A stretch of 64,000 nt of DNA. Origin: Vicinamibacterales bacterium (GTDB taxonomy: Bacteria; Acidobacteriota; Vicinamibacteria; Vicinamibacterales; CAZQMT01). A program made the translations under genes and the position numbers. The stretch lies in assembly GCA_965197935.1 (NCBI GenBank), contig CBDAOD010000002.1, positions 1,218,849 through 1,282,848 on the forward strand, given 5' to 3'. Below are positions 1,598 through 61,481 of the stretch, piece after piece. Position 1 is the first letter of the stretch; each line of letters opens with the position of its first letter. The notes beneath the pieces are model-generated. The model was given only the letters and a program-made list of their open reading frames with translations, was not told the DNA's origin and did not search any database.

Positions 1598-1772
1598 CTA
1601 GCCCGTGACAAAAGTCCTGCGTCGCACCAAGACCGGTGCGGCGCCCGGCTGGCAAGGCGCGAGGAACGAGAATACCGGGAGTATTTGACCCGTCGTGAAC
1701 AATGCCCGACGCAGCCCGCGGCGGGATGCGGCGCCGGTCGACGGCAGCAGGACTTTTACCACGGGCCGCTAG
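1598..1772 (+). mobile_element. Core-bearing hairpin MITE, family A (copy A1, diverged arms)
   Basis: CTAG at 1598-1601 and 1769-1772. Arms are CTAGCCCGTGACAAAAGTCCTGCGTCGCACC and GCAGCAGGACTTTTACCACGGGCCGCTAG. Core contains GCGCCCGGCTGGCAAGGCGCGAGGAACGAG, with tip AATACCGGGAGTATT at 1671-1685. Confidence 0.8.
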
Positions 1773-1972
1773 CGGAGCTGCTCGAGGATCCAGCCGATGA
1801 GCCCGGGACCGGTGGCCACGGGGTCGCCGAGCCAGTCGGGCGGGGTGAGCCAGACGAACGCGAGGATCGCGATCACCATGAGGTCGTATTGCCAGGTGGC
1901 ACGTTCGTACGTCCAGAACAGGGCGTTCCAGATTACCAGCGCCGGCAGGATCACCAGGCGTCGGACGCTCAC
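1769..1972 (-). CDS. Small two-TM membrane protein, apparently translationally coupled to the upstream phosphatidyltransferase gene
   Basis: GTG at 1972-1970 overlaps the TGA (1971-1969) of the upstream gene in a GTGA arrangement. Encodes VSVRRLVILPALVIWNALFWTYERATWQYDLMVIAILAFVWLTPPDWLGDPVATGPGLIGWILEQLR. Its TAG stop is the terminal CTAG of element A1. Confidence 0.45.
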   Translation of the reverse strand: MSVRRLVILPALVIWNALFWTYERATWQYDLMVIAILAFVWLTPPDWLGDPVATGPGLIGWILEQLR

Positions 1973-2571
1973 GCAATCCCTTCGGTTCGCCCGCGATCGA
2001 GCTCGCGCCACGTGTAGTACACGCGGTCGGCCACGGTGACCAGCGACAGGACCCCGATGATCCACAGGACTGCGGCCATCCGATTCGTGAAGGCGCCGAT
2101 CATGAACAGGACGATCCGCTCTGGCCGCTCCATGAAGCCGACCTTGCACTTCGCGATCAGGGATTCGGCCCTGGCGCGGGTGTAGCTCGTCATGACGGCG
2201 AACATCATGGCGAGCGCCGCGATCATCACGTAGTCAGTGCGGCCCAGCTCCGCATACAGGAAGATGAGCCCGACGAAGAGCGAGATATCCGAGAAGCGAT
2301 CCATGACGGAGTCCCAGAACCCGCCGAAGGCTGTTTCCATGTCGAGCTCGCGCGCGACCTTGCCATCGACGAAGTCGAAGATGTTGGCGATGATCATGAT
2401 GAAGCCGGCCGTCATGAACCGTCCCATAGCCAGGGCGTACGCCGCCGCAACGTTGATGAGAACCCCGACGAGGGTGAGCAGGTTCGGATGGACCCGGAGC
2501 CGGACACAGAGCCGAATGATGGCGTTCAGCGGGAACATGCACGCCGCGCCGATGGCGCCGGTGAAGGTCAT
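1969..2571 (-). CDS. CDP-alcohol phosphatidyltransferase family protein (PgsA-like)
   Basis: C-terminal 200 aa of ORF 1969..3321, from the ATG at 2571. Contains the family motif region DFVDGKVARELDMETAFGGFWDSVMDRFSD and multiple TM segments. The start could lie slightly upstream. Confidence 0.8.
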   Translation of the reverse strand: MTFTGAIGAACMFPLNAIIRLCVRLRVHPNLLTLVGVLINVAAAYALAMGRFMTAGFIMIIANIFDFVDGKVARELDMETAFGGFWDSVMDRFSDISLFVGLIFLYAELGRTDYVMIAALAMMFAVMTSYTRARAESLIAKCKVGFMERPERIVLFMIGAFTNRMAAVLWIIGVLSLVTVADRVYYTWRELDRGRTEGIA

Positions 2572-2739
2572 GACGGTGGGTGCAGCGTTCGTGGACTCGG
2601 ATCCGTGCGAGTACCCGGCTTCGGCCGCGCGCGCGTGCGACCGCAGACTCCGAGGCTGGGTGGGGCGGCGAACGACCACGGGATGTCGCGATCCGCGAGC
2701 GCCGACGCGTCGCGACTCGTGACGGGCGCATAGTAGCCC

Positions 2740-4638
2740 ATGGCCATCGGCGATCTCAAGGCCCAGATTGCGCGGCTGCCCGAGCAGCCGGGCGTCTACC
2801 TGTATCTCAACGAGCGGGGAGAAACGATTTACGTCGGCAAGGCGCGAGTGCTGCGGGACCGCGTCCGGAGCTACCTCGGGTCGCCGGGGACGAGCCCGAA
2901 GACCAACGCCCTGGTGGGGGAAACGCACGGGCTCGAGGTGATCGTCACGGACTCGGTCGTCGAGGCTCTCGCGCTCGAGAACCACCTGATCAAGCAGCGC
3001 ACCCCCAAGTACAACATCCTGCTCCGCGACGACAAGAACTACCCGTATCTCGAGCTGACCACGACCGAGGCGTTCCCGCGGGTGCTCGTCGCCCGGCGTG
3101 TGGAGCCCGGCGGCAGCTTCTACGCTGGACCGTTCCTCCCGGCGTCGTTCGCACGCAAGACGATGTCGTTGACGCACCGGCTGTTCGGTATGCGATCGTG
3201 CAACGAGACCATAACGGGCCGGCGCGACCGGCCGTGCCTCGAGTACGACATCAAGCGCTGCATCGCGCCGTGTGTCGAGGAGATCTGCTCGCCGGAGCGA
3301 TACCGGCTGGCCGCCGAGCACACCCGGCTCTTCCTCGACGGCCGCAATGACGAGCTGGTGGCTGACCTCCGGTCACGCATGCTCGCGGCGGCGGCCGCCG
3401 AGCGCTTCGAGGAGGCCGCACAGCTACGTGACGCCATTCGCACGATCGAGACGCTGCGTCACCGTCAGCAGAAGATTGCAACCGCCGGCCTCGGGGACCG
3501 GGATGCATTCGGGGTGAAGATAGGCCCCGGCGGCGCCGTCATCCAGGTGTTCCAGATGCGAGGGGGACGCGTGATCGAGCGCGTCGAGCTCGTCACAGAG
3601 GCAGACCGGGGCGTGGTGGAGGGGACCGAGGCCGATGTCGTCGAGGCCGCGCTGCAGCAATTCTACGAGACTCGCGTCGCCCCGCCCGAAGTGCACGTGC
3701 CGGTCGAGCTCCCGGAGCCCGAGCCGCTCGAGCAGTGGCTGTCGGGTCGGAGCGGTCGTCGGGTCCGGCTGGTTGTGCCACAGCGGGGCGAGAAGCGAGG
3801 CCTGTTACATCTGGCGTCGCGCAACGCGGCGGTAGCCTACACCGCGCGCTTCGAGGAGAGCGCGGTGGCGGACGCGCATGCGCTGGAGGCGCTCGGCGCC
3901 GCCTTGGCGCTGCCCTCGCCGCCACAGCGTATCGAGTGCTTCGACGTGTCGACCATCCAGGGGAGCGAGACCGTCGGCTCGATGGTCGTCTGCGAGCGTG
4001 GCCGCCTGCGACGGGACGAGTACCGCAAGTTTCGGATCCGCCAGCTCTCGGGGCGCACGCGTCCCGGTGGCGCCGGCGCACCCGAGGGGGCGCCGATCCC
4101 CGACGACTTCGCGGCGATGCGCGAGATCGTCCTGCGGCGATTCCGTCGGCTCCTCGAGGAAGGTGGGCCGTTTCCGGACCTGGTCGTGATCGACGGTGGC
4201 AAGGGGCAGCTCTCGGCGGCGTACGGGGCCTTCGCCGACCTGGGTCTCGCCAACCTCGTGGCGGTGGGCCTCGCCAAGAAAGAGGAGCTGGTCTTCACGC
4301 GCGACCGCCCCGACCCGATTGCGTTACCCCGGACCAGCGCGGCCCTGCTGCTGCTGCAGCGTGTCCGGGACGAGGCACACCGGTTTGCCGTGACGTTCCA
4401 CCGGCGTGCGCGCCGGATGCGGGACCTTCGCTCGGAGCTGGATCAGATTCCCGGGGTCGGGCCTCGGCGGCGCCGCACCCTGCTCACGACCTTCGGCAGC
4501 GTGGCGGGCGTGCGCCGGGCCACGCGGGAGGAGCTGGTCCGCGCTGTGGGTGCACGCACGGCCGACGCCGTCCTCGGCTACTTCGCCGGCTCCACCCCTC
4601 ACATTTTGTTTTTTGCGGCTTTTCTGGTCTACTCTTAA
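2740..4638 (+). CDS. uvrC: Excinuclease ABC subunit C
   Basis: GIY-YIG N-terminus (PGVYLYLNERGETIYVGKARVLRDRVRSY), UvrBC-interaction region, RNase H-like endonuclease part and C-terminal HhH (LDQIPGVGPRRRRTLLTTFGS). Confidence 0.93.
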   Translation: MAIGDLKAQIARLPEQPGVYLYLNERGETIYVGKARVLRDRVRSYLGSPGTSPKTNALVGETHGLEVIVTDSVVEALALENHLIKQRTPKYNILLRDDKNYPYLELTTTEAFPRVLVARRVEPGGSFYAGPFLPASFARKTMSLTHRLFGMRSCNETITGRRDRPCLEYDIKRCIAPCVEEICSPERYRLAAEHTRLFLDGRNDELVADLRSRMLAAAAAERFEEAAQLRDAIRTIETLRHRQQKIATAGLGDRDAFGVKIGPGGAVIQVFQMRGGRVIERVELVTEADRGVVEGTEADVVEAALQQFYETRVAPPEVHVPVELPEPEPLEQWLSGRSGRRVRLVVPQRGEKRGLLHLASRNAAVAYTARFEESAVADAHALEALGAALALPSPPQRIECFDVSTIQGSETVGSMVVCERGRLRRDEYRKFRIRQLSGRTRPGGAGAPEGAPIPDDFAAMREIVLRRFRRLLEEGGPFPDLVVIDGGKGQLSAAYGAFADLGLANLVAVGLAKKEELVFTRDRPDPIALPRTSAALLLLQRVRDEAHRFAVTFHRRARRMRDLRSELDQIPGVGPRRRRTLLTTFGSVAGVRRATREELVRAVGARTADAVLGYFAGSTPHILFFAAFLVYS

Positions 4639-11724: not shown

Positions 11725-12222
11725 ATGGAACGTCTGTGGTCCCCCTGGAGATCGGCCTACGTGACCGGCGCCGGCCAGGCAACCGAGGGGTGCGTCTTCT
11801 GCGAGGCCGTCGAACGCCCGGCGTCCGAATCGCCGCTGGTGGTGTGCCGGGGACGGCATGCCTTCGTGATCCTGAATCTCTACCCCTACAACAACGGCCA
11901 TCTGATGGTGGTGCCGAATCGGCACGTGGGGTCGCTGGCGGACGCGGCGCCGGCCGAGCTGCAGGAGCTCATGGAGCTCACCCGCCAGGCGGAGATGGCG
12001 CTGGACGAGGTCTACCACCCGCAGGGTCTCAACCTGGGGATGAACCTCGGTCGACCGGCGGGGGGCGGCGTGGCTGACCACCTCCACATGCACGTCGTGC
12101 CGCGCTGGAACGGCGATACGAACTTCATGACGGTGGTCGGCACCGTGCGCGTCCTCCCGGAGACCCTGGAGCAGGCCGCCGAGCGGTTGCGCCCGGTCTT
12201 CGAGTGTCTCCGGGCCTCCTAG
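11725..12222 (+). CDS. HIT family hydrolase
   Basis: ATG at 11725. Histidine triad HLHMHVVPR, CVFC zinc-type motif and NLYPYNNGHLMVVP. Confidence 0.85.
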   Translation: MERLWSPWRSAYVTGAGQATEGCVFCEAVERPASESPLVVCRGRHAFVILNLYPYNNGHLMVVPNRHVGSLADAAPAELQELMELTRQAEMALDEVYHPQGLNLGMNLGRPAGGGVADHLHMHVVPRWNGDTNFMTVVGTVRVLPETLEQAAERLRPVFECLRAS

Positions 12223-12279
12223 CAGCCCCTCTCGCGCACGGTGTGCCCCTTCTGGGGGTCGTTCGCGGCCTCTGGCTAG
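12219..12279. repeat. Short unclassified CTAG-to-CTAG module between the HIT stop codon and element C
   Basis: CTAG at 12219-12222 (contains the HIT stop TAG) and at 12276-12279. Its ends CAGCCCC...GGCCTCTGG resemble the sequence after the rpsA stop (TAGCCAGAGGCC at 11241). Too short to classify. Confidence 0.3.
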
Positions 12280-12441
12280 TGGACTGTATCAGTCATTTCC
12301 GTAGCACTCCCCGGGCGGAGCATCCCGGCGGACGGCGTTGCTCCTCCCTCGAATACTCCCGGTATGCTCGGTCGTCGCGCCTTGTCCGCCGGGCGCTGCG
12401 CTCCGGCGACCGCTACAGAAATGACTGGTACAGTCCACTAG
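12276..12441 (-). mobile_element. Core-bearing hairpin MITE, family C
   Basis: Arms are CTAGTGGACTGTATCAGTCATTTCCGTAGC and GCTACAGAAATGACTGGTACAGTCCACTAG. Core is in reverse orientation with tip AATACTCCCGGTAT at 12352-12365. Confidence 0.8.
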
Positions 12442-12606
12442 CTAGCAGCCCGTGGTAAAAGTCCTGCGTCGCACCAAGGGGGCGCTGCGCCCGGCTGGCA
12501 AGGCGCGAGAAGCGAAAATACCGGGAGTATTTGACCGACGAGCAACACAGCCGGGCGGGATGCAGCGCCGGCCGACTGCAGCAGGACTTTTGCCACGGGC
12601 TGCTAG
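12442..12606 (+). mobile_element. Core-bearing hairpin MITE, family A (copy A2)
   Basis: CTAGCAGCCCGTGGTAAAAGTCCTGC ... GCAGGACTTTTGCCACGGGCTGCTAG, with tip AATACCGGGAGTATT at 12517-12531. The left CTAG directly follows the CTAG of element C (CTAGCTAG). The right CTAG contains the stop of the minus-strand ACAD gene. Confidence 0.85.
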
Positions 12607-13798: not shown

Positions 13799-14959
13799 CT
13801 AGCTCCCCAGGATCTGCTTGGCGATCGTCTGTAGCTGGAGGTTCGAGGTGCCTTCGTAGATCTGTCCGATCTTCGCGTCGCGGTAGAGCTTCTCGACCGG
13901 ATAGTCCTTGACGTAGCCGTAGCCCCCGAACAACTGGACGGCCAGCGACGTGACCCGCTCGGCCATCTCGGACGACAGCAGCTTGCACATCGCGGCCTCG
14001 GTCACGAATCGTCGCCCCGCGTCTCTGAGGCGCGCCGCATTGTAGACGGCGAGTCGCGCCGCCTCGAGATCCGTCGCGGCCCGTGCGAGCTGGAACTGCA
14101 CTCCCTGGAAGTCGGCGATGGCCTGACCGAACTGCCGTCGCTCTCGCGTGTAGGCGATAGCGTGGTCGAGGGCGCCCCGCGCCAGCCCCACCATCTGCGC
14201 GCCGATGCCGATCCGGCCTTCGTTGAGCGTCTCGATGGCGACGCGGTAGCCCTTGCCGACGTCCCCCAGCACGTTGCGTCGTGGGATCCGGCACGCGTCG
14301 AGCACGACCTCACAGGTGCTGCTGGCCCGGATGCCGAGCTTGTCCTCCTTCTTTCCGATGGTCAGCCCGTGCGTCGCCCTGTCGACGACGAAGGCCGTGA
14401 TCCCGCGATGCCCGGCCTCGGGCCGCGCGTTGGCGAAGACCAGAAACACCTCCGCCTCGTGCGCGTTCGTCGTCCAGAGCTTGCGGCCGGTCACGACGAA
14501 GTCGTCGCCGGATTCGACCGCTCGCGTCGCCAGCGCGAAGGCGTCGCTCCCCGAGCCCGACTCGGACAGCGCGTAGGCGCCCACCGCGGTGCGCGCCAGC
14601 ACCGGCAGGTATCGTGCCTTGAGCTCGTCGTCACCCCAACGCAGCAGGGCGTTGATCACGAGGGTGTTCTGCACGTCGACGAGGACGCCGATCGCAGGGT
14701 CGACGCGCGAGAGCTCCTCGACCGCGACGATGGAGTGGAAGAACGTCCCGCCTCCGCCACCCCAGGTATCGGGAATCTCGACCCCCATGAGCCCGAGCTC
14801 GAACAGCTGCGCGATCAGCTGCGGCGGGATCGTGGCCGTGGCATCCATCTCACGGACCAGGGGGCGAATCTGCGCCTCGGCAAAGTCGCGGACGCTATCG
14901 CGGAGGAGCGCTTCGTCTTCGCGGAGGCGAGTCAGGGGTGGGACGTGAGCGCTCTGCAT
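13799..14959 (-). CDS. Acyl-CoA dehydrogenase
   Basis: 386 aa (YALSESGSGSDAFA ... IYEGTSNLQLQTIAKQIL). The stop lies in an unoccupied CTAG at 13799-13802. Confidence 0.9.
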   Translation of the reverse strand: MQSAHVPPLTRLREDEALLRDSVRDFAEAQIRPLVREMDATATIPPQLIAQLFELGLMGVEIPDTWGGGGGTFFHSIVAVEELSRVDPAIGVLVDVQNTLVINALLRWGDDELKARYLPVLARTAVGAYALSESGSGSDAFALATRAVESGDDFVVTGRKLWTTNAHEAEVFLVFANARPEAGHRGITAFVVDRATHGLTIGKKEDKLGIRASSTCEVVLDACRIPRRNVLGDVGKGYRVAIETLNEGRIGIGAQMVGLARGALDHAIAYTRERRQFGQAIADFQGVQFQLARAATDLEAARLAVYNAARLRDAGRRFVTEAAMCKLLSSEMAERVTSLAVQLFGGYGYVKDYPVEKLYRDAKIGQIYEGTSNLQLQTIAKQILGS

Positions 14960-15135: not shown

Positions 15136-17238
15136 GTGTTCGGCAGTCTTCGACCGATGACGGTGGGCACGCTGGCGCTGCTGTTGGCAGCGGCCGTGCG
15201 GGCTGACCATCAGCCACCGCAACAGTCCCAGCCGACCGAGCAGACCGAGCAGGCCGAGCCCACGGAGACCCAGGCTCCCCAGCCGGTCTTTCGGACGGGC
15301 ATCGACTTCGTCCGCGTCGATGTGATCGTCACTGATGGCGATGGGAATCCGGTCCTGGACCTCGGGCCGGACGACTTCGAGATCTTCGAGGACGGCAACC
15401 CTCAAACCATCGAGTCCTTCAAGCTGGTGCGGATTTCGGGCGTTCCCGAGCCCGACGCGGAGCCGGCTCGGCCGATCCGCAGCGTGTACGACGAAGAGCG
15501 TGAAGCCGCGCGCGAGGATACCCGGCTCTTCGTGATCTTCCTCGACGATTATCACGTGCGGCGGGGGGCAAGCCTCGCCGTCCGTGGCCCGCTGATGAGC
15601 TTCCTCCAGGACCTCGGGCCCCTGGACATGGTCGCGGTGATGTATCCGCTGACGCCGGTCGGGGACGTGCGGTTCACTCGGGATCATGGGGCGCTGACCC
15701 GGATGATCCAGCAGTTCGACGGCCGCAAGTTCGACTACACGCCACGGAACCAATACGAGGATCGCTACGCCATGTACCCGTCCACGGTCGTGGAGCGGAT
15801 CCGCAACGAGGTGTCGTTCTCCGGGTTACGGGCCCTGGTCACGCACCTCGGCGCGCTGCGCGAGGGACGAAAGTCGGTGATCGTGGTCAGCGAGGGGTAC
15901 ACGAACATGCTGCCGCCGCAGCTGCGCGAGGAGGTGGCCGGATTCCGGGGGACTGGGCCGGGCGCCGGGGCGGCCGGCGGCTTCGAGGACAGCGCGGCCG
16001 AGGACACGGCGCGCTTCTTCGCCGATGCGGATCTCCAGTTCGAGCTTCGCCGGGTATACGACGCGGCGAATCGCTCCAACACGTCGCTCTACACGCTGGA
16101 CCCGCGCGGGCTGGGGGTCTTCGAGTTCGGTATCGACGAACGTGTCGGGTTTCGCACGGACCAGACGTTCATGCGTAGTACGGCGGACACGCTCCGGGTC
16201 CTCGCCGATCAGACGGACGGCCGGGCCATCGTCAACCAGGCCGACCTGGAGGGCGGGCTGAGGCAGGTCGTCAGGGACACGAGCTTCTATTACCTGGTTG
16301 GCTATAACTCCAGCGAGGCGCCGACGGATGGCAAGTTCCATCCGATTCAGGTCGAGGTCAAGCGCCGCGGCGTACAGGTGCGCGCCCGGACGGGGTATTG
16401 GGCCTTGACCGCCGAGGAGACGGCCCGGGCGCTGGCGCCCCCCGCCCCCGGGCCGGACCCCGCCGTCGCGGAGGCCCTCGGCGCGATCGCTCAGCCAACG
16501 CGCGGTCGCGCGGCGCGGACCTGGCTCGCCACGGGCCGGGGTCCGAACGGCAAGACCCGGATCACCTTCGTCTGGGAGCCGTTGCCGGCGGGTCCGGGCG
16601 CGCGCGGCGACGCGCCGGTCCGCGTGTCGTTGATGGCGTCCGGGCAGGACGGTCAATCCTACTTCCGCGGCCACGTGCCCGACGTGACGCTCGCCTCGGC
16701 CGAGCCCGGTGGGGCGGGCGGTGCGGCGCCGGCGGCGCGCACCGGACCGTCGCGGGTGGTCTTCGATGCGGACCCGGGGCGAGTGCAGCTGCGGATCTCG
16801 GTGGAGGGCGCGGCGGGACAGGTGCTCGACAACGCCGTCCAGGAAATACTGGCCCCAGACTTCACGACGCCCACGGTGGCCCTGAGCACGCCTATCGTCA
16901 TCCGCGCCCGCAACGTCGTCGAGTTGCGCTCGCTGTCGACCGATCCGGACGCGGTGCCATCCCCGGGGCGGGAGTTCCATCGAAGCGAGCGCGTGCTCAT
17001 CCGCTTCGAGGTGTACGGCCCCGGCACCACGCCGCCGACGCCCACATCGGCGCTCCTCAACCGTGCGGGTGAGTCGATGATGGAGCTGTCGCTCGGTGCC
17101 TCGGCCGGCATCGAGGGTGTGCACCAGCTCGAGGTGCCGCTCGCCGGCCTCGCGCCAGGCGGCTATCTGGTGGAGATCAAGGCCACCGCCGAGGGTGGCG
17201 ATGCGAAGGAGTTGGTGGCCTTCCGGGTCGTCGGCTAG
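15136..17238 (+). CDS. Secreted VWFA-related protein (acidobacterial VWFA-type N-terminal domain)
   Basis: Signal peptide. FRTGIDFVRVDVIVTDGDGNPVLDLGPDDFEIFEDGNPQTIESFKLV followed by a VWA-like region (VIFLDDYH..., SLYTLDPRGL) matches the family I know as the VWFA-related acidobacterial domain. 700 aa. Confidence 0.75.
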   Translation: MFGSLRPMTVGTLALLLAAAVRADHQPPQQSQPTEQTEQAEPTETQAPQPVFRTGIDFVRVDVIVTDGDGNPVLDLGPDDFEIFEDGNPQTIESFKLVRISGVPEPDAEPARPIRSVYDEEREAAREDTRLFVIFLDDYHVRRGASLAVRGPLMSFLQDLGPLDMVAVMYPLTPVGDVRFTRDHGALTRMIQQFDGRKFDYTPRNQYEDRYAMYPSTVVERIRNEVSFSGLRALVTHLGALREGRKSVIVVSEGYTNMLPPQLREEVAGFRGTGPGAGAAGGFEDSAAEDTARFFADADLQFELRRVYDAANRSNTSLYTLDPRGLGVFEFGIDERVGFRTDQTFMRSTADTLRVLADQTDGRAIVNQADLEGGLRQVVRDTSFYYLVGYNSSEAPTDGKFHPIQVEVKRRGVQVRARTGYWALTAEETARALAPPAPGPDPAVAEALGAIAQPTRGRAARTWLATGRGPNGKTRITFVWEPLPAGPGARGDAPVRVSLMASGQDGQSYFRGHVPDVTLASAEPGGAGGAAPAARTGPSRVVFDADPGRVQLRISVEGAAGQVLDNAVQEILAPDFTTPTVALSTPIVIRARNVVELRSLSTDPDAVPSPGREFHRSERVLIRFEVYGPGTTPPTPTSALLNRAGESMMELSLGASAGIEGVHQLEVPLAGLAPGGYLVEIKATAEGGDAKELVAFRVVG

Positions 17239-17398
17239 TGCACCGCCGTCGAGATGCGGTCACGGATCGGGTTCGCAGCGCGCCCAGGCGCAAGGCGCCG
17301 CGACGAGGAATACCGGGAGTATTTCGAGGAGCGGCAACGCCGCGGGTGGGTGTGCTGCGGGCTCGAGGCGTGACCGCGTCTCGACGGCGGTGCACTAG
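17235..17398 (+). mobile_element. Core-bearing hairpin MITE, family B (copy B1)
   Basis: CTAGTGCACCGCCGTCGAGATGCGGTCACG ... CGTGACCGCGTCTCGACGGCGGTGCACTAG, with tip AATACCGGGAGTATT at 17309-17323. The left CTAG contains the TAG stop of the VWFA gene. Confidence 0.85.
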
Positions 17399-17528: not shown

Positions 17529-18890
17529 ATGTCAGATTTCATCAAGGACTTCATGGCCGAGGTGACAGCCAAGAACCCGGCGGAGACGGAATTTCACCAG
17601 GCCGTCCAGGAGGTCGTGGAGTCGCTGGCGCCGATCTTGGATCGTCGACCCGAGTACCGCACGGCCAAGATCCTCGAGCGGATCGTCGAGCCCGAGCGAG
17701 TGATCATGTTCCGCGTGCCCTGGCAGGACGACCAGGGCGGCGTCCAGGTCAATCGCGGGTTTCGGATCGAGATGAACAGCGCGCTGGGACCCTATAAGGG
17801 GGGGCTCCGGTTTCACGCGTCGGTCAATCTGGGCATCCTCAAGTTTCTGGCGTTCGAGCAGGTGTTCAAGAACTCGCTCACCACCCTGCCCATGGGTGGC
17901 GGAAAGGGAGGCTCGGACTTCGACCCGAAGGGGCGCAGCGACGACGAGGTAATGCGCTTCTGTCAGAGCTTCATGCTCGAGTTGGCCAGGCACATCGGCC
18001 CGGACACCGACGTCCCGGCCGGTGATATAGGCGTGGGGGGACGGGAGATCGGCTACCTCTTCGGGCAGTACAAACGTATCGCCAACGAGTTCACGGGCGT
18101 GATGACCGGCAAGGGCCTCAACTGGGGCGGCTCGCTGATCCGGCCGGAGGCCACGGGATACGGCTCGGTCTACTTCGCCGCAGAAATGCTGGCGACACGA
18201 AACGAGACGCACGCGGGCAAGGTCTGCCTGGTGTCCGGCAGTGGGAACGTGGCGCAATACACGGTCGAGAAGTTGATTGAGCTCGGCGCGAAACCCGTCA
18301 CGCTATCGGACTCCAGCGGCTACATCTACGACGAGGCCGGAATCGATCGAGAGAAGCTGGACTTCGTGCTCGAGTTGAAGAACCAGCGCAGAGGCCGAAT
18401 CAAGGAGTACGCGGAACGGTTCACCACCGCCGCGTACACCGATGCCGACGAGACTCTGGACCATCACCCGCTGTGGGGGCATCCGGCGTCGTGTGCCTTT
18501 CCGAGCGCCACGCAGAACGAGCTCAACGCGAAGGACGCTGATGCGATGCTCGACAACGGGGTCTACCTCGTCTCCGAGGGCGCCAACATGCCAACGACCC
18601 TCGACGCGGTGCAACGGTTCATCGATGCCAACATCCTGTATGCGCCCGGCAAGGCGGCCAACGCCGGCGGCGTCGCCACCTCGGGGCTCGAGATGGCACA
18701 GAACAGCGCGCGCATGGCCTGGACCCGCGAGGAGGTGGACCGACGGCTGCAGCACATCATGAAGGCCATTCACCGCGCGTGCTGGGACACGGCGAAGCAA
18801 CACGGAACGCCGGGCAACTACGTCAACGGCGCGAACATTGCCGGCTTCCTCAAGGTGGCCGACTCGATGATGGATCAGGGACTGGTCTAG
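17529..18890 (+). CDS. gdhA: NADP-specific glutamate dehydrogenase (large hexameric type)
   Basis: KGGLRFHASVNLGILKFLAFEQVFKNSLTTLPMGGGKGGSDFDPKG, 453 aa. Confidence 0.93.
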   Translation: MSDFIKDFMAEVTAKNPAETEFHQAVQEVVESLAPILDRRPEYRTAKILERIVEPERVIMFRVPWQDDQGGVQVNRGFRIEMNSALGPYKGGLRFHASVNLGILKFLAFEQVFKNSLTTLPMGGGKGGSDFDPKGRSDDEVMRFCQSFMLELARHIGPDTDVPAGDIGVGGREIGYLFGQYKRIANEFTGVMTGKGLNWGGSLIRPEATGYGSVYFAAEMLATRNETHAGKVCLVSGSGNVAQYTVEKLIELGAKPVTLSDSSGYIYDEAGIDREKLDFVLELKNQRRGRIKEYAERFTTAAYTDADETLDHHPLWGHPASCAFPSATQNELNAKDADAMLDNGVYLVSEGANMPTTLDAVQRFIDANILYAPGKAANAGGVATSGLEMAQNSARMAWTREEVDRRLQHIMKAIHRACWDTAKQHGTPGNYVNGANIAGFLKVADSMMDQGLV

Positions 18891-43207: not shown

Positions 43208-43211
43208 CGGC

Positions 43212-44451: not shown

Positions 44452-44611
44452 CAATACGTTGTCAGTTCTCGTGGGACCGGCCTGGCGGGGACCGCCCAGC
44501 AAACCGAAGACATTGCGGCGGCTGACGCCACGTGTTTCAGCCGGGCCACGGAAGCTGGCCGCCTTCACGGTTTGCTGGGCGACCCCCGCCAGACCGGTCC
44601 CACGAGAACTG
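44448..44611. mobile_element. Family D palindromic element (copy D2, right terminus missing)
   Basis: TTAGCAATACGTTGTCAG at the left, with the TAG serving as the prfB stop. Long internal palindrome CAGTTCTCGTGGGACCGG...CCGGTCCCACGAGAACTG (44463-44611). CCCAGCAAACCGAAGACATTGCGGCGGC is related to D1. Confidence 0.6.
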
Positions 44612-44637
44612 AAGTCCTGAGGCGGGCTGCACCGATC

Positions 44638-44667
44638 CTGGTGCGACGCGGGACGGCCGGTTGCTAG
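44638..44667 (-). repeat. Degenerate family A arm remnant
   Basis: The reverse complement CTAGCAACCGGCCGTCCCGCGTCGCACCAG aligns with the A arm CTAGCAGCCCGTGGTAAAAGTCCTGCGTCGCACCAAG if an internal deletion is allowed. Confidence 0.35.
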
Positions 44668-44828
44668 TGCACCGCCGTCGAGATCCGGTCACGCCTCGAG
44701 CCCGGCAGCACACCCATCCGCGGCGTTGCCGCTCCTCGAAATACTCCCGGTATTCCTCGTCGCGGCGCCTTGCGCCTGGGCGCGCTGCGAACCCGATCCA
44801 TGACCGCATCTCGACGGCGGTGCACTAG
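44664..44828 (-). mobile_element. Core-bearing hairpin MITE, family B (copy B2)
   Basis: CTAGTGCACCGCCGTCGAGATCCGGTCACG ... GACCGCATCTCGACGGCGGTGCACTAG, with tip AATACTCCCGGTATT at 44740-44754. Confidence 0.85.
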
Positions 44829-44990
44829 CAGCCCGTGGTGAAAGTCCTGCGTCGCACAAAGGGCGGCGCTGCGCCCGGCTGGCGGGGCGCGAGGAGGAAA
44901 AATACCGGGAGTATTTGACCGACGAGCAACGCAGTCAGGCGGGATGCAGCGCTGGCCGACTGCAGCAGGGCTTTTACCACGGGCTGCTAG
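44825..44990 (+). mobile_element. Core-bearing hairpin MITE, family A (copy A3)
   Basis: Shares its left CTAG (44825-44828) with B2. CTAGCAGCCCGTGGTGAAAGTCCTGC ... GCAGGGCTTTTACCACGGGCTGCTAG, with tip at 44901-44915. The right CTAG holds the stop of the minus-strand PBP gene. Confidence 0.85.
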
Positions 44991-47405: not shown

Positions 47406-47814
47406 CTAGCAGCCCGTGGTGAAAGTCCTGCGCTGCACCAAGGGCGGTGCTGCGCCCGCCTGGCTAGTACTACTTTGTTAGATCCGCAATTGCACCGACT
47501 CTAGAGTCTCCCTCTGGGATGGGTGAAACCCCTCGCCTTTAGGCGAAGCCTTCAGGAGGCCGCAGGGCCGGACCTCTTCGGGCTCTGGGACGTGCGCCGT
47601 GATAGTCGGCTTCAGCCGACGCGGCGCACTGATTCCCTCGCCTTCAGGCGAGGGAGACTCAAATCACTTGTCGGATCTCGCCCAAATTGTGCGATCTAAT
47701 AAAGTAGTACTAGGCGCGAGGAGCGAAAATACCGGGAGTATTTGACCGACGAACAACGCGGTCAGGCGGGATGCAGCGCCGGCCGACTGCAGCAAGATTT
47801 CTACCACGGGCTGC
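47406..47814 (+). mobile_element. Core-bearing hairpin MITE, family A (copy A4) interrupted by a nested family F element
   Basis: Left part is CTAGCAGCCCGTGGTGAAAGTCCTGCGCTGCACCAAGGGCGGTGCTGCGCCCGCCTGG. A 250-bp insert follows, then GCGCGAGGAGCGAAAATACCGGGAGTATTTGACC...GCAGCAAGATTTCTACCACGGGCTGC. The right terminal CTAG is lost (CTGCGGG). Confidence 0.8.
47464..47713. mobile_element. Family F element (related to family D termini), nested inside A4
   Basis: CTAGTACTACTTTGTTAGATC ... GATCTAATAAAGTAGTACTAG inverted repeats bounded by CTAG on both sides. The interior is rich in stem-loops. Its termini resemble the D1 end GTACTACGTTGTCAGATC. Confidence 0.75.
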
Positions 47815-47924
47815 GGGCACACCGAGATGCTCACAACGGCTGCGGGGAAGCCCGCAGAATCCGATAGGCGCGCCGAAACCCAGCGGGGGAATGGACCAAG
47901 AAACTGAGGAGATTTGCATTCATC

Positions 47925-52555: not shown

Positions 52556-53691
52556 TGCCCCCACCCGCCGCGCCGCTCGGCTTGTATCTCCACATTCCCT
52601 TCTGCGCCTCGATCTGCGGTTACTGCAATTTCAACCGCGGGCTGTACGACGAGCCGCTGAAGACGCGCTATGTGACGGCGCTGGTGGAGGAGATCGATCG
52701 CTGCGGGGCAGACGAGCCCGCCGATACGATCTACTTCGGTGGCGGCACTCCCTCGCTGTTGGAGCCGGCCGAGGTCGGAGGGTTGATCGACGCGTGCCGC
52801 CGATCCTTCCAGGTGAGTGACGCGGCGGAAGTGACCCTCGAGATCAATCCCGAGAACGCGGTGCCGGCGTTGCTGGAGGGCTACCGTCGGGTGGGGGTCA
52901 ATCGCCTCAGCTTCGGCGTGCAGTCTTTCCTGGACGCCGAGCTCGCGCGACTGGACCGCGCGCATTCGGCCGGCCGGGCGCGCGAGGCCGTGGCGCTGGC
53001 GCGCGAGGCCGACTTCGACAACGTGAGCCTCGACCTGATGTTGTGGCTCCCCCAGCAGACGGTGGCCCAGGCACACGAGTCGGTCTCGGCGTTGCTCTCG
53101 CTGCGACCCGAGCATGCGTCACTGTATTTGCTGGAGCTGTACCCCAACGCGCCGCTGCGGGACGCCATGACGCGCGGCGCGTGGTCCCTCGCGCCCGAAG
53201 ACGACGCGGTGGACATGTATCTGGGTGCGCTCGACCGGCTGGACGCCGCCGGCTACGAGCACTATGAGCTCTCGAACGTGGCGCACCCCGGGCGCCGGTC
53301 GCGCCACAACCTCAAGTATTGGACCGACGGCGTCTGGCTCGGTTTCGGCTGCGGGGCCCACTCCACCAGGGACGGGATCCGCTGGCACAACATTGCGGGT
53401 GTCACCGAGTATGTGAGCCTGGTAGAATCTGGAGACGACCCGGGCATCGACCACCGGGTCCTGAGTCCGGACCAGCGGGTCGAGGAGGCACTGTTCACGG
53501 GCCTGAGGCTCACGGAGGGCGTGGATCTGTCGTCGGTCGGTCGGGAGTATGGCGTGGATGCCTGGGTGCGCTACGGGGAGGCCCTGTCGCGCCACGCGGA
53601 CGCCGGGCTCGTCATTCGGGAAGCAAACCGGCTGAGGCTGACGCGGCGCGGGATGTTGCTGGCCAACGAGGTCATGGGTGTTTTCGTCTAG
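52555..53691 (+). CDS. hemW: Radical SAM heme chaperone HemW / coproporphyrinogen-III-oxidase-like protein
   Basis: ATG at 52555 overlaps the upstream TGA. LYLHIPFCASICGYCNF (CxxxCxxC), GGGTPS and the HemN C-terminal domain. Confidence 0.85.
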   Translation: MPPPAAPLGLYLHIPFCASICGYCNFNRGLYDEPLKTRYVTALVEEIDRCGADEPADTIYFGGGTPSLLEPAEVGGLIDACRRSFQVSDAAEVTLEINPENAVPALLEGYRRVGVNRLSFGVQSFLDAELARLDRAHSAGRAREAVALAREADFDNVSLDLMLWLPQQTVAQAHESVSALLSLRPEHASLYLLELYPNAPLRDAMTRGAWSLAPEDDAVDMYLGALDRLDAAGYEHYELSNVAHPGRRSRHNLKYWTDGVWLGFGCGAHSTRDGIRWHNIAGVTEYVSLVESGDDPGIDHRVLSPDQRVEEALFTGLRLTEGVDLSSVGREYGVDAWVRYGEALSRHADAGLVIREANRLRLTRRGMLLANEVMGVFV

Positions 53692-53750
53692 CGCCTCAGT
53701 ACGGTAAAGTACGCGAACCTCGGCCAGACCTTGACAAGGAGGGAAGTAGG

Positions 53751-54233
53751 ATGAGTTCGATTCTGATTTTGCCGGTGCATGCTCGCCGGCGCATGGTGCT
53801 TGGCCTTGCGATCGTTGGGGTGTGCCTTGCGGTGACCGCCGGCAGTGTTCAGGCGCAGGATGCCCCGGTTCGGACCTTTGCATCGGAGGTGGGAGTTCTT
53901 TTCAATCCGATCAAGCCCGAGGCGACCGCCGATTTCGAGGAGGTCATGGGCAAGGTCAAGGAGGCCCTCGCCAACAGCGAGGACCCGATGCGGCAAGAGC
54001 AGGCGGCCGGCTGGAGGATCTTCAAGTCCAAGGAGCCCGGCCCCGGCGGGAGCGTCTTCTACGTCATGGTGATGGATCCCGCGGTCGAGGGCGGTGAGTA
54101 CGCCGTCGGGCAGCTCCTCGCCGAGTCCTTCCCTGACGAGGCGCAGAGTCTCTACGAGAAGTTCAGCGCCGCCTTCGCGGGCGGCCAGAGCTTGATGAAC
54201 CTCGACCTCGTCAGCAGCTTCAGCACCCCGTAA
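53751..54233 (+). CDS. Secreted hypothetical protein (paralogue 1)
   Basis: GGAGGGAAG Shine-Dalgarno before the ATG at 53751, and a signal peptide (LGLAIVGVCLAVTAGSVQA). The mature part is very similar to the next gene. Confidence 0.6.
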   Translation: MSSILILPVHARRRMVLGLAIVGVCLAVTAGSVQAQDAPVRTFASEVGVLFNPIKPEATADFEEVMGKVKEALANSEDPMRQEQAAGWRIFKSKEPGPGGSVFYVMVMDPAVEGGEYAVGQLLAESFPDEAQSLYEKFSAAFAGGQSLMNLDLVSSFSTP

Positions 54234-54465
54234 CTGCCGGTCATGGGTCGGCGTGGCCCCACGGAGTCGTGATGCCGCGCCGATGCCGTCCCTCCCGCAC
54301 CCGAGCCGGCCGTCGCGCCGGGACGGGGCCAGGTTGTCCGGTCCGACGGCTGCCGTGCGGCGCCCATCCGGACGTCCAAGCGCGTCTGTGAATCAGACCG
54401 GCGCGTGGCGTCATCATGGCCACGTGGCCACCATCCAAGCATTTCAATCCGCGAACGGGGGATTC

Positions 54466-54987
54466 ATGACAGCACGCAATGCGTGGCGAAGTCGTCGAGC
54501 CGGAGCGGCGAGGGCGAGCCTGCCGGTCGCGATGGTGACCGTGATGCTGCTCGGCTTGACGGTGGAGGGGCTCCAGCAACCCGCCCCGTCGACCGGCGAG
54601 GGTTCGGGAGAGGTTGTCCCGGTCAGGACCTTCGCATCGGACGCGGGGATCATTCTGAATCCGATCAAGTTCGAGGCGACCGCCGATTTCGAGCTGGTCA
54701 TGGGCAAGCTCAAGGAGGCCCTGGCCAGCAGCGAGGACCCGAAGCGGCAGGAGCAGGCGGCTGGCTGGAAGGTCTTCAGGTCCCAGGAGCCTGGCCCCAG
54801 CGGCAGCGTCCTCTACGTCATGGTGATGGATCCTGCGGTGCAGGGCGGCGAGTACGCCGTGTCGAAGATCCTCTCAGAGGCCTTCCCCACGGAGGTGCAG
54901 GAGCTCTACCAGAAGTTCAGCGACGCCTACGCGAGCGGGCAGAGTCTGCTGAACCTCGATCTCGTCAGCAACTTCAGCGCCCCCTGA
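54466..54987 (+). CDS. Secreted hypothetical protein (paralogue 2)
   Basis: ATG at 54466 and a signal/TM segment. VRTFASDAGIILNPIKFEATADFELVMGKLKEALASSEDPKRQEQAAGWKVFRSQEPGPSGSVLYVMVMDPAV... aligns without gaps to paralogue 1. Confidence 0.6.
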   Translation: MTARNAWRSRRAGAARASLPVAMVTVMLLGLTVEGLQQPAPSTGEGSGEVVPVRTFASDAGIILNPIKFEATADFELVMGKLKEALASSEDPKRQEQAAGWKVFRSQEPGPSGSVLYVMVMDPAVQGGEYAVSKILSEAFPTEVQELYQKFSDAYASGQSLLNLDLVSNFSAP

Positions 54988-55053
54988 TGGTGTGTCTCAC
55001 ACATGACGCGACGGCTCGAGGTGTGGGCGCCGGATCTGACAACATCGTGCTAG
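54988..55053. repeat. Family D half-element
   Basis: GGTGTGTCTCACACATGACGCGACGG...GGGCGCCGGATCTGACAACATCGTGCTAG. Its reverse complement aligns with the D1 left arm (CTAGCACTACGTTGTCAG...). It starts right after the stop of paralogue 2 and shares its CTAG with B3. Confidence 0.45.
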
Positions 55054-55213
55054 TGCACCGCCGTCGAGATGCGGTCGCGCCTCGAGCCCGCTGCACACCC
55101 ACCAGCGGCGTTGCCGCTCCTCGAAATACTCCCGGTATTCCTCGTCGCGGCGCCTTGCGCCTGGGCGCGCTGCGAACCCGATCCGTGACCGCATCTCGAC
55201 GGCGGTGCACTAG
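55050..55213 (-). mobile_element. Core-bearing hairpin MITE, family B (copy B3)
   Basis: CTAGTGCACCGCCGTCGAGATGCGGTCGCG ... GTGACCGCATCTCGACGGCGGTGCACTAG, with tip AATACTCCCGGTATT at 55125-55139. The right CTAG holds the stop of the minus-strand OMP gene. Confidence 0.85.
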
Positions 55214-59359: not shown

Positions 59360-60274
59360 ATGCATCCGATCTTGGCGGTGGGGTCCGTGGCGTTCGACTC
59401 GATCAAGACGCCCTTCGGCGAGGCGTCTCGGGTGGTGGGTGGAGCGGCGACCTATTTCAGCGTGGCGGCCTCCTTCTTCACCGACGTCCGGATGGTGGCG
59501 GTCGTGGGTGAGGACTTCGGCGACGAGCAGCGACGCGTGTTCGGCGGCCGACGGATCGACCTGGCCGGGCTACAGACCGTGCCGGGGCATACGTTCCGGT
59601 GGAAAGGGGAGTACAGCTACGACCTCAACGCTCGCGAGACGATCTACACCCACCTCAACGTATTCGAGAAGTTCCGGCCGGCGATCCCGGCCGAGTACCG
59701 TGCCACGCCCTATGTCTTTTTGGGCAACATCCACCCCGTGCTCCAGGCCGAGGTCCTCGACCAGGTCTCCAGCCCGACGCTGGTGGCTGCGGACTCGATG
59801 AACTACTGGATCGAACGGACGCCCGACGAGCTGCGCGACGTGCTTGCGCGGGTGGACGTGCTGATCATCAACGACGCCGAGGCCAGGCAGCTCAGCGGGG
59901 AGCCGAACCTGGTCAAGGCCTCTCGAGTCATCCAGGACATGGGGCCCGGGCGGCTCGTCATCAAACGGGGAGAGTACGGCGTCCTGATGACACGCGAGAA
60001 CGGATTCTTCGCCGCGCCCGCCATGCCGCTCGAAGCGGTCTTCGACCCGACCGGGGCCGGCGACACGTTCGCCGGCGGCTTCATGGGCTACCTGGCCTCG
60101 CGCGGTGAGATCTCCGACGAGGTCCTGACGCAGGCGATCATTTACGGCAGCACGATGGCGTCGTTCGCGGTGGAGGACTTCAGCCTCGATCGCCTTCTCA
60201 GGTTGACTCCGCAGGAGGTCCGGTCCCGGTTTCGTGAGTTCAAGTGGCTGACCCACTTCGAAGACCATGCCTAG
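59360..60274 (+). CDS. PfkB family carbohydrate/nucleoside kinase
   Basis: MHPILAVGSVAFDSIKTPFG... and DPTGAGDTFAGGFMGYL (PfkB signature 2). An alternative GTG start is at 59318. Confidence 0.8.
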   Translation: MHPILAVGSVAFDSIKTPFGEASRVVGGAATYFSVAASFFTDVRMVAVVGEDFGDEQRRVFGGRRIDLAGLQTVPGHTFRWKGEYSYDLNARETIYTHLNVFEKFRPAIPAEYRATPYVFLGNIHPVLQAEVLDQVSSPTLVAADSMNYWIERTPDELRDVLARVDVLIINDAEARQLSGEPNLVKASRVIQDMGPGRLVIKRGEYGVLMTRENGFFAAPAMPLEAVFDPTGAGDTFAGGFMGYLASRGEISDEVLTQAIIYGSTMASFAVEDFSLDRLLRLTPQEVRSRFREFKWLTHFEDHA

Positions 60275-60875
60275 CGGCCGGGCACGGACGTTCTCCGTCA
60301 CCCCACGCCTTGCCGCGGGAGCCGCCGCGCATGGCAGGGTGCGAGGGGCGAGAACGGGCGCGTGGCTGGCGCTGCTGCTCGCGACCGTCCTGTGGACGGC
60401 GTCGCTCATCGCGGCCCCGTATCTGGCCGCCCATCCTGACGCCGCCGGCCTGGGCGTGAGGGCGGCGGCGATGGTCTATGTCCTCGCGGGCGCCGTCTGT
60501 CATCAGCGTCCCGACCGATCGTTTCACGCGTGGGGCGTGCAGCTGCCGGTTTGCGCCCGTTGCTTTGGGCTCTACCTAACGGTGCCCCTCGGCCTGCTGA
60601 TGGGGGGAGTGAGCGCCGGCTGGCCGTGGCGTCGCCTCCGTCGACGACCCCTAGCAGCCCGTGGTGACAATTCTGCATCGCACCAAGGGCGGCTCGGCGC
60701 CCGGCTGCCCGCCGCGCTCCTGCTCTTCTCGGCCGTCCCGACGGCCCTCACGGTGGCCGCGGAGTGGTCCGGGCTGGGCCAGCCGACCGACGTGACACGG
60801 GCCGCGGCGGCGGTGCCGCTGAGCGCGGCGGTGGGCTGGGTCGTTGCCGCCACGATCCGCGGACACCTGAGGTAG
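60267..60875 (+). CDS. DUF2085-like membrane protein containing an in-frame MITE arm fragment
   Basis: CHQRPDRSFHAWGVQLPVCARCFGLYL is the DUF2085 signature. The loop codons PLAARGDNSASHQGRLGARL are encoded by the family A arm fragment at 60651-60707. Confidence 0.7.
   Translation: MPSGRARTFSVTPRLAAGAAAHGRVRGARTGAWLALLLATVLWTASLIAAPYLAAHPDAAGLGVRAAAMVYVLAGAVCHQRPDRSFHAWGVQLPVCARCFGLYLTVPLGLLMGGVSAGWPWRRLRRRPLAARGDNSASHQGRLGARLPAALLLFSAVPTALTVAAEWSGLGQPTDVTRAAAAVPLSAAVGWVVAATIRGHLR
60651..60707 (+). mobile_element. Family A left-arm fragment (57 bp) embedded in a coding sequence
   Basis: CTAGCAGCCCGTGGTGACAATTCTGCATCGCACCAAGGGCGGCTCGGCGCCCGGCTG, compared with A3 CTAGCAGCCCGTGGTGAAAGTCCTGCGTCGCACAAAGGGCGGCGCTGCGCCCGGCTG. 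Confidence 0.6.
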
Positions 60876-60930
60876 ACTGAGCGAACCCTCGCGCGGCACA
60901 GGTGACACCGCCCAGCCGAAACCCGGGTCC

Positions 60931-61299
60931 ATGGAAAGAGGAACTCTGGTCCTAATGTGTGTGACGGCCTGGGCCGTGCCCGGCGCCGGACATCTCTGGC
61001 TGCGGCGTCGCCAGAAGGGCGTGATCTTCCTCGTGACGCTCCCCTTCATGTTCACGATTGGGCTCCTGCTCGACGGCCGGTTGTTCCCCTTCGTGCCATC
61101 GCAGCCACTCGTGGCGCTGGCCGCGGTCGCCAACCTCGGCATCGGCCTGACCTACTTCATCGCGCGGGCGGCCGGAGCGGGCGCCGGGGTCGTGACCGAG
61201 GTCGCCTACGAGTACGGCAACACCTTCCTCATCGTGGCCGGGCTGCTCAACCTGCTCGTGATCCTGGACGCCTTCGACGTCGCGCTGGGACGAAAGTAG
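60931..61299 (+). CDS. Hypothetical membrane protein
   Basis: 122-aa ORF with three hydrophobic segments (GVIFLVTLPFMFTIGLLL, LVALAAVANLGIGLTYFIA, FLIVAGLLNLLVIL). Confidence 0.5.
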   Translation: MERGTLVLMCVTAWAVPGAGHLWLRRRQKGVIFLVTLPFMFTIGLLLDGRLFPFVPSQPLVALAAVANLGIGLTYFIARAAGAGAGVVTEVAYEYGNTFLIVAGLLNLLVILDAFDVALGRK

Positions 61300-61307
61300 G
61301 CCGGGTC

Positions 61308-61481
61308 ATGGTGAGCCATTTCCTGCTGCTGGCGCTGTTCTCGTTCTTCGTCTCGCTCATCTTCGCCGTGCTCACCCGCGACGATCCGGGTGACCAGCTA
61401 CGATTCGGCGCGCTCATGTTCGCGGGGCTGACGGGCAGCGCGATCGTCCTCGGCTGGCTGATGTTTCCCCTTCCACTCTAG
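61308..61481 (+). CDS. Hypothetical small membrane protein (57 aa)
   Basis: ATG at 61308. MVSHFLLLALFSFFVSLIFAVLTRDDPGDQLRFGALMFAGLTGSAIVLGWLMFPLPL. The TAG stop lies in the terminal CTAG of element E. Confidence 0.4.
   Translation: MVSHFLLLALFSFFVSLIFAVLTRDDPGDQLRFGALMFAGLTGSAIVLGWLMFPLPL

Follow-up and report, generated by a model that had tools for sequence, protein, structure and literature searches.

The window analysed here is a stretch of 64,000 nt on the forward strand of contig CBDAOD010000002.1 (positions 1,218,849-1,282,848; assembly GCA_965197935.1) of a Vicinamibacterales bacterium, and it carries about 14 copies of small hairpin-forming repeat elements that are bounded by the tetranucleotide CTAG and that repeatedly abut a gene in such a way that the element terminus and the TAG stop codon coincide. 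Its GC content is 68% and its gene content is housekeeping only, including uvrC, a trpS/tyrS-type synthetase gene, scpAB, cmk, rpsA, gdhA, valS, argS, lnt, prfB, a class A penicillin-binding protein (PBP) gene, dnaK-dnaJ and acyl-CoA dehydrogenase genes, among others; the homologues of the window proteins bear the source label Acidobacteria and, once, Vicinamibacterales. The elements measure 127-250 nt in the window, their arms are 82-98% complementary, and no open reading frame (ORF) fits within them. A metagenome scan with the core of the elements alone, in which the ends were not used, retrieved at least 80 soil loci, and the comparisons below rely on this collection as well as on the window. 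The ENA contig L081 (74.6 kb) is the same genome as the window (99.9% identity) and adds no information.

Anatomy and folding of the elements

In the main family, the arm types A-D possess a common core (...GGCGCGA-N9-ATACCGGGAGTATT...) and differ in their arms, and types E and F constitute a separate family that starts with TAG(C/T)ACTAC(G/T)TTGT. Each metagenome element end was placed by its distance from the core, and, among the metagenome loci listed, 22 of the complete copies, representing more than 10 arm types, measure 164 nt from TA to TA. Their layout is a YTAR tetranucleotide followed by about 35 positions that vary yet remain complementary and then by about 90 conserved asymmetric positions, with the motif CCYGT at positions 8-12 common to many arm types. 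The folding energy of single copies is -100 to -135 kcal/mol (z-scores from -9 to -14). Moreover, in a set of 18 diverse copies, double compensatory changes occur in 34 of the 53 consensus pairs and 93.9% of the cells are paired, versus 72% after shuffling and 31-44% with the partner slid; this covariation extends to the inner pairs adjoining conserved unpaired bases. In 26 of 29 copies, the fold of the core strand is more stable by about 11 kcal/mol than that of its complement, a strand asymmetry that amounts to one observation because all copies inherit the same core; G-U pairs were ruled out as its source, their counts being equal on both strands. The stems (75-80 bp) and the lack of a T-run after any copy depart from the features of intrinsic terminators.

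The 164-nt family appears to be undescribed. Rfam over the whole window returned no match at the gathering score and, at relaxed thresholds, only chance microRNA-precursor hits; a plasmid search with the element consensus returned no match, viral contigs searched with a 17-nt arm and a 16-nt core sequence returned chance matches only, and the core and arm sequences were not found in the literature. In three metagenome copies (L133, L164 and L179), which are 201-235 nt long, a 36-nt hairpin unit (GGGGTCCCCAACGCGGCAGCCGCGTTGGGGTGGAGC) is present once or twice inside the core at one fixed place, and this unit is a second, smaller repeat targeting the first. At another locus (L117, about 590-2550), a group II intron with reverse transcriptase and maturase domains interrupts the apical loop of a type-A element directly after ...ATACCGGGAGTATTTG, and the element hairpin may be a target for this intron.

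Element termini at stop codons

The earlier note had proposed that element termini coincide with ten stop codons of the window, and an ORF indeed ends exactly at each of these coordinates. Nine of the ten adjoin a clear terminus, namely the CTAG stops at 1769, 12603, 17235, 18887, 43082, 44987, 55210 and 61478 and the prfB stop, correctly given as TTAG; the tenth, belonging to the HIT gene, is ambiguous. Specifically, the 53 nt after the HIT stop (12219) have only CTAGCAGCCC in common with a type-A terminus and match nothing else, and the first unambiguous element beyond it begins at 12276; the HIT stop is doubtful as an element terminus, and the segment 12219-12279 is either a relic element or a native spacer. 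As regards the genes, Pfam supports the HIT, acyl-CoA dehydrogenase, gdhA, lnt, prfB and PBP1A assignments and, weakly, that of the outer membrane protein (OMP), and homologues of the VWFA protein number more than 4,500, several of them being named by their source as VWFA-related or VWA domain proteins. Codon statistics computed from the first possible start made the two small membrane ORFs look doubtful. Both have many homologues, almost all of 57-58 aa for the 57-aa ORF (about 61308-61481) and mostly of 65-68 aa for the 67-aa ORF (1769-1969, minus strand), and, judged by this conservation, both are real, conserved proteins.

The window contains 34 CTAGs, versus an expectation of 189 from base composition and of 61 from CTA x TAG / TA. 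As many as 22 of the 34 lie at or within repeat elements, and those neither genic nor made by elements comprise 13 stop codons and one intergenic site (47406, occupied), so that the proposed scarcity of CTAG and its funnelling of insertions to gene ends hold: with 13 of the 14 non-genic sites being stops, target availability explains the pile-up. Eight CTAGs are genic (155, 308, 4646, 11342, 13202, 22005, 32114 and 38828) and none of them holds a full element; 155, 308 and 32114, already recorded as free, all lie within genes. Among the window ORFs with coding statistics, 26 end in TAG, 25 in TGA and 5 in TAA. TAG is unexpected as the commonest stop at such a high GC content, and its frequency provides a larger pool of C-TAG gene ends; in the metagenome loci listed, the TAG share of stops is 34%.

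Occupancy of the window stops depends on the base that precedes TAG. Elements adjoin 8 of the 13 C-TAG stops (9 counting HIT) and none of the 14 G-TAG or A-TAG stops (Fisher p = 5.8e-4), and the sole T-TAG stop, that of prfB, is occupied, as a target of YTAR or CTAG, and not of bare TA, would predict. The list of unoccupied C-TAG stops given earlier (13799, 25424 and 53688) is right as far as it goes and omitted that of a PfkB-like kinase at 60271-60274. A gain of the C before TAG after insertion, to which the excess of C-TAG over the window's own C-TGA rate might have pointed, was considered and rejected, as the excess vanishes against the 36% of C before TGA in the metagenome loci.

The same coincidence is found outside the window. 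With incoming ORFs in the metagenome loci called by their coding signature at third codon positions (GC3), 48 of 101 element ends in the listed loci face an incoming ORF that ends within -400 to +150 nt, and the distance from stop to terminus is exactly 0 in 18 of these 48 (18 of 101 overall), the others scattering from -398 to +71; the excess at distance 0 has a binomial p of about 4e-27 against a uniform spacing over 0-150 nt. The stop coincidence is confirmed as real and as general across independent soil samples, and no report of MITE (miniature inverted-repeat transposable element) ends coinciding with stop codons was found in the literature. Among the 53 left ends scored in the metagenome loci, 12 lie on a stop, and among the 38 right ends 6 do so; the same detection in the window finds two left and two right ends, and the core shows no clear preference of orientation relative to the abutting gene.

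Whether gene ends merely offer the target or also favour the retention of insertions was approached by comparing stops with other CTAGs. In the listed loci, 16 of the 72 with a scorable end have an end on a stop, versus 30 of 83 free non-genic CTAGs located at stops, a rough estimate that depends on heuristic gene calls and in which elements that escaped recognition swell the intergenic class. Stops are not over-represented among the occupied sites, and the pattern, as the earlier note had foreseen for this outcome, reflects availability only, with retention bias undetected. This result also bears on the possibility that the hairpins serve the host as 3'-end stabilisers, terminators or translational attenuators and owe their association with stops to selection. 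Such host roles are known for other hairpin repeats, e.g. REP elements and Correia/NEMIS. Processing by RNase III is mentioned for Correia/NEMIS (PMC2229807). A hairpin that begins at the stop would be the first structure in the 3' untranslated region, and the core is conserved over many soil lineages, as a host function would predict; nevertheless, the lack of stop enrichment, the lack of a clear core orientation at the abutting gene, the absence of a T-run after the hairpins and the existence of syntenic relatives that manage without elements render this explanation improbable.

Protein ends bear on another alternative, in which the elements create the stops. In this scheme, insertion into the 3' end of a gene, e.g. 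in a TAY codon, would let the G of the element complete a TAG and truncate the protein. It would account for the CTAC, instead of CTAG, that flanks the type-D element (61478-61636) on the right, for the ATAG or GTAG on the gene side of two metagenome copies and for the TGA that relatives often have where the window has TAG. However, a decayed type-A terminus, and not coding sequence, begins with this CTAC, stop codons differ between the window and its relatives also at element-free sites, and the C-termini are native wherever they were compared, in agreement with the earlier claim that insertion leaves the protein untouched. Specifically, the terminal residue of gdhA is the same in 80 of 80 orthologues; these came from a scan of a genome collection with gdhA that retrieved relatives of at most 80% identity from many phyla and no empty sites, and that was used for the C-terminus test. 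The VWFA protein terminates at the conserved ...FRVVG of its family, the 57-aa protein has the same last residue as its orthologue, the alignment of the 67-aa protein is consistent with the same, and both are of the length usual in their families. Likewise, the window's SPOR-domain protein and its orthologue at the syntenic metagenome locus L175 end in the same terminal motif, the L175 protein being one residue longer. Creation of stops, contradicted for these five genes, is scarcely credible, and insertion at pre-existing stops is retained.

The elements and the free C-TAG stops of the window are collected in Table 1. The chimera at 18887-19029 has lost its apical core between two CTCCTCG repeats, which points to recombination of arm types through the shared core, and its right end is decayed (CTG-A), 10 nt ahead of the next start codon. 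The elements at 44664 and 44825 share one CTAG, as expected of tandem insertion at one site. The fragment at 60651-60709 lies in a DUF2085 membrane-protein gene (60369-60875) and corresponds to about 20 extra residues (PLAARGDNSASHQGRLGARLP) that the orthologue in the syntenic relative L231 does not have; these in-frame additional residues indicate that a repeat fragment has turned into DUF2085 coding sequence. Apart from the elements, the window contains a 300-nt direct repeat of 83% identity (53857-54156 and 54611-54910), which looks like a duplicated gene or domain; the two ORFs that contain it (53319-54233 and 54253-54987) lie upstream of the OMP gene and match nothing in Pfam.

Table 1. 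Repeat elements and unoccupied C-TAG stops along the window
Position	Strand	Feature	Remarks
1598-1772	+	Type-A element, arm start TAGC(AG)CCCGTG...	Right CTAG (1769-1772) is the stop of the 67-aa protein (minus)
12219-12279	.	HIT C-TAG stop, then unique 53-nt segment	Matches type A only in CTAGCAGCCC and ...CTGGCTAG
12276-12441	-	Type-C element, arm TAGTGGACTGTATCAGTCATTTCC	CTAG at both ends; core on minus strand
12442-12606	+	Type-A element	Right CTAG (12603-12606) is the acyl-CoA dehydrogenase stop (minus)
13799-13802	-	Free C-TAG stop, second acyl-CoA dehydrogenase	
17235-17398	+	Type-B element, arm TAGTGCACCGCCGTCGAGAT	Left CTAG is the stop of the VWFA-related protein; hairpin -135 kcal/mol
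18887-19029	.	Chimera of type-B left half and type-D right half, apical core deleted	Left CTAG is the gdhA stop
25424-25427	+	Free C-TAG stop, methylmalonyl-CoA mutase	
43082-43208	.	Type-E element (TAGCACTACGTTGTCAG...), separate family lacking the core of types A-D	Left CTAG is the lnt stop
about 43209-43275		Truncated core remnant of the 164-nt family	Directly after the element at 43082-43208
44448-44612	.	Type-E element without its last ~13 nt at the right (far) end	Left TTAG is the prfB stop
44664-44828	-	Type-B element	CTAG 44825-44828 common to the next element
44825-44990	+	Type-A element	Right CTAG (44987-44990) is the PBP1A stop (minus)
47406-47822	+	Type-A element, PBP1A-dnaK intergenic	Sole primary non-stop site in the window; right flank decayed to CGGG
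47464-47713		Nested type-F element, 250 nt	Inside the type-A element at 47406-47822, at an internal CTAG (family CAAG)
53688-53691	+	Free C-TAG stop, HemN-like radical SAM protein	
55050-55213	-	Type-B element	Right CTAG is the beta-barrel OMP stop (minus); 98% identical to 17235-17398, inverse orientation
60271-60274	+	Free C-TAG stop, PfkB-like kinase	
60651-60709	+	Type-A left-arm fragment, 57 nt	In frame in the DUF2085 gene; sole genic copy
61478-61636	-	Type-D element	Left CTAG is the stop of the 57-aa membrane protein; right flank CTAC
about 61634-61660		Decayed type-A-like terminus	After the CTAC flank of the element at 61478-61636

Target, mobility and the proposed explanation

At 72 of the listed metagenome loci, YTAR flanks 99 of the 101 ends (64 CTAG, 18 TTAG, 10 CTAA and 7 TTAA), and window elements have CTAG at both ends. 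The target had been described as specific for CTAG; CTAG is preferred, and the actual target is the broader YTAR. By the same token, the statement that every element starts with G after the TA is true of the window and fails for relatives, in which A is the first base of the copies flanked by TTAA or CTAA; this G is probably part of a 4-bp duplication. CTAG is palindromic and cannot separate a 2-bp from a 4-bp duplication, which leaves the informative cases to other flanks: TTAG/TTAG (three copies), CTAA/CTAA (one) and CCAG/CCAG (one) fit a 4-bp duplication, and, in a count of the non-palindromic pairs, four are direct repeats and seven fit a TA duplication better. At four loci (L118, L130, L149 and L180), CCAG or CCGG stands instead of CTAG at a flank, in L149 at both ends; very-short-patch repair makes T-to-C changes of this type at CTAG.

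Identity between copies of one type reaches 98%, and a type-F copy is nested in a type-A copy exactly where the host copy reads CTAG and its family CAAG; nested, tandem and chimeric copies imply that the elements behave as non-autonomous transposons. Syntenic relatives (L226, L227, L228-L230 and L231-L232) are without the window's insertions and have spacers of 8-104 nt at these places. Specifically, the VWFA-gdhA spacer of L226 measures 104 nt and its spacer after gdhA 10 nt, 45 nt with no element follow the 67-aa gene in L228-L230, and 8 nt follow the 57-aa gene in L231-L232. Conversely, L175, which is syntenic with 39.7-44.4 kb of the window and is without the insertions after lnt and prfB, has its SPOR-domain gene occupied by an element (1497-1660) at the C-TAG stop, and the window orthologue reads ...CGA-TAG at the same position (41432-41435) and is empty. 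The TAG of this pair is kept at the same codon, and only the synonymous third base before it differs. L226 (ENA ERZ23495573 scaffold_2398) shares the gene order of the window (acyl-CoA dehydrogenase, VWFA, gdhA, PPDK-like, mutase) at 68-85% protein identity; its GC content is only 46.5% (68% in the window), its CTAG density is 2.1 per kb, and it is free of elements.

The elements are probably MITEs of at least two families that are moved in trans and inserted at YTAR with a strong preference for CTAG. The main family comprises 164-nt elements that each fold into a single long hairpin, in which a conserved core of about 90 nt separates inverted arms of about 35 bp; the arm types present in the window are A-D. 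A transposase acting in trans, presumably of the DDE type and either of the IS5 group or IS630-like, would duplicate TA or the whole tetranucleotide, and the target would be rebuilt on both sides of the element, so that an insertion at a C-TAG stop would leave stop and protein unchanged and be harmless. Insertions in genic CTAGs would be purged by selection; with CTAG depleted at 68% GC and TAG leading among the stops, the harmless CTAGs are nearly all gene ends. Moreover, each insertion makes two CTAGs from one, which leads to tandem and nested arrays such as those at 12.2-12.6, 43.1-43.3, 44.4-45.0 and 47.4-47.8 kb. A 160-nt hairpin starting at the stop would then be roughly neutral. Direct support for the reading comes from the anatomy of the elements, the YTAR flanks, the nesting, the stop coincidence, the intact C-termini and the contrast between C-TAG and G-TAG stops.

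Several observations weigh against the explanation by MITEs. Firstly, the flanks split between two lengths of duplication: beside the pairs above that fit 4 bp, TTAG/CTAA, CTAA/TTAG, ATAG/CTAG, GTAG/CTAG and CTAG/CTAC fit a duplication of TA, with elements ending in G...C or A...T. In a near-identical type-A subfamily, the inner and the outer bases of the tetranucleotide both vary between copies, and this joint variation speaks for a YTAR duplication of 4 bp like those of IS5 and MITEPsy1, a length that is favoured, not proven. Secondly, CTAG is found at none of the orthologous empty sites, which leaves an ancestral C-TAG as a presumption: the contexts are GTAG or CTGA for VWFA, TTAG for gdhA, CTGA for the 67-aa gene, GTGA for the 57-aa gene, GTGA for lnt, GTAG for prfB and ATAG for the window's SPOR site. 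The comparison, which the earlier note had put forward as a test of the target-site model, cannot discriminate, because the relatives are too divergent (protein identity only 68-85%) and the contexts drift also where no element ever sat, the window and a relative reading CTAG and CTGA at 13799, CTAG and TTAG at 25424, CTAG and GTAG at 60271, and ATAG and CTGA at 902. The VWFA site minus its element was also sought in metagenomes, and no exact empty site was found.

Thirdly, no transposase with matching ends was found in about 400 kb of element-bearing metagenome loci or in the window, which contains no transposase at all. The search for autonomous copies looked for YTAR-flanked inverted repeats 250-3500 nt apart, and its hits, all rejected, were the L117 group II intron within an element, an unrelated CTAG-flanked insertion sequence at L131 and two coincidences that are not insertion sequences. 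The L131 insertion sequence (273-2124; 1852 nt) codes for a DDE_Tnp_1_4 transposase of 511 aa. It is bounded by CTAG on either side, and the right CTAG also belongs to a 164-nt element, to whose arms the terminal repeats of the insertion sequence bear no relation. At L121, a 20-nt sequence, CTAAAGGCCTGCGCTACGAG, is inverted (109-128 and 3429-3448) around acyl-CoA dehydrogenase and MFS-type transporter genes; this arrangement does not represent an insertion sequence, and the 20-nt sequence may be a further small repeat of gene ends. Lastly, the arms of the 164-nt family are hypervariable and its core and length are conserved, and in MITEs the arms are normally the conserved part.

This last point raises the alternative that the 164-nt family is a structure-defined hairpin, in which the enzyme reads the core and the CTAG foot and the arms are free to vary while paired, a reading that is considered unlikely. 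The more specific version, in which a folded single-stranded DNA or RNA route is used and a HUH/Y1 transposase (RAYT or IS200/IS605 TnpA) or a recombinase recognises core and CTAG, is decidedly unlikely. The whole-length fold at -100 to -135 kcal/mol, the 34 of 53 pairs with compensatory changes, the 93.9% paired cells, the covariation of inner pairs, the length fixed at 164 nt over more than 10 arm types, the conserved and asymmetric core, the better folding of the core strand in 26 of 29 copies and the group II intron in the apical loop of one copy are all as such a mobile hairpin would have them. However, the strand asymmetry is inherited with the core and is one observation, the ends are symmetric and bear the same kind of tetranucleotide, and CCYGT recurs at positions 8-12 over many arm types as a transposase binding site would. 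Moreover, one near-identical subfamily varies its left and right tetranucleotides, which are equal in 4 of 6 complete copies, as predicted by target duplication and not by a fixed 3' cleavage site; the insertions are without orientation bias, and no Y1 or RAYT gene was seen within the approximately 0.5 Mb inspected. Insertion of MITEs at YTAR thus remains the preferred reading.

Relation to known repeat families and significance

Close counterparts of the target are found in the IS5 group. IS5 duplicates 5'-YTAR-3' (PMC5009759), and the IS5-like MITEPsy1 of Pseudomonas syringae duplicates CTAG or YTAA, 4 nt (PMC3189936). MITEPsy1 and the present elements are alike in their YTAR-type target and are both small, non-coding, multi-copy and bounded by inverted repeats, but the arms differ from the IS5 ends GGAAGGT... 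given for MITEPsy1 (PMC3189936). Moreover, the present elements differ from the IS5 group in being a single long hairpin whose core is conserved and whose arms vary, and no IS5-type transposase was found nearby. IS630/Tc1-mariner elements and their MITEs duplicate a TA target, and several copies here fit TA with ends G...C; IS630 prefers CTAG. In the listed loci, no flank is without the central TA, and 64 of the 101 flanks are CTAG. RUP of Streptococcus pneumoniae, which inserts at TA, is thought to be moved by IS630-Spn1 (PMC2229807). Conversely, the direct-order TTAG/TTAG and CTAA/CTAA flanks fit 4 bp better than a 2-bp duplication, and no IS630-type gene was found.

Other hairpin repeats show partial similarities. 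The Correia/NEMIS elements of Neisseria and the ERIC elements of enterobacteria are likewise imperfect intergenic palindromes of 100-170 nt that form long stem-loops when transcribed, and Correia elements insert at TA. Unlike the elements with variable arms described here, they have uniform termini; there is no sequence similarity, and no report of their exact seating on stop codons was found in the literature on these families. REP/REPIN-RAYT systems likewise consist of hairpin repeats with a foot tetranucleotide (GTAG/CTAC there, CTAG here), located at gene ends and with compensatory stem changes. REP units are 20-40 nt long and have GTAG or CGTC heads (PMC3733652). The present elements measure 164 nt, their YTAR feet resemble target duplications, their core is apical, and no RAYT gene was seen. 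Integron attC sites are likewise structure-conserved, sequence-variable hairpins that start at or overlap the upstream stop codon, and they are targets of group II introns. However, the present elements have no RYYYAAC/GTTRRRY boxes, they stand on CTAG feet and they adjoin housekeeping genes, not cassettes; moreover, the centre of the hairpin, variable in attC sites, is the conserved part here.

The combination of a transposon's target preference with the composition of a genome turns stop codons into safe landing sites. For such genomes, this explains in annotation why long hairpins start exactly at stop codons and in assembly why fragments break at gene ends, and it offers a testable case for the effect of a 160-nt hairpin touching the stop on termination and mRNA stability. 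The conserved core with its freely covarying arms merits experimental attention: if the structure-defined reading were true, it would reveal a new recognition mode for a bacterial repeat family that is widespread in soil Acidobacteriota and has harmless landing at stop codons built in.

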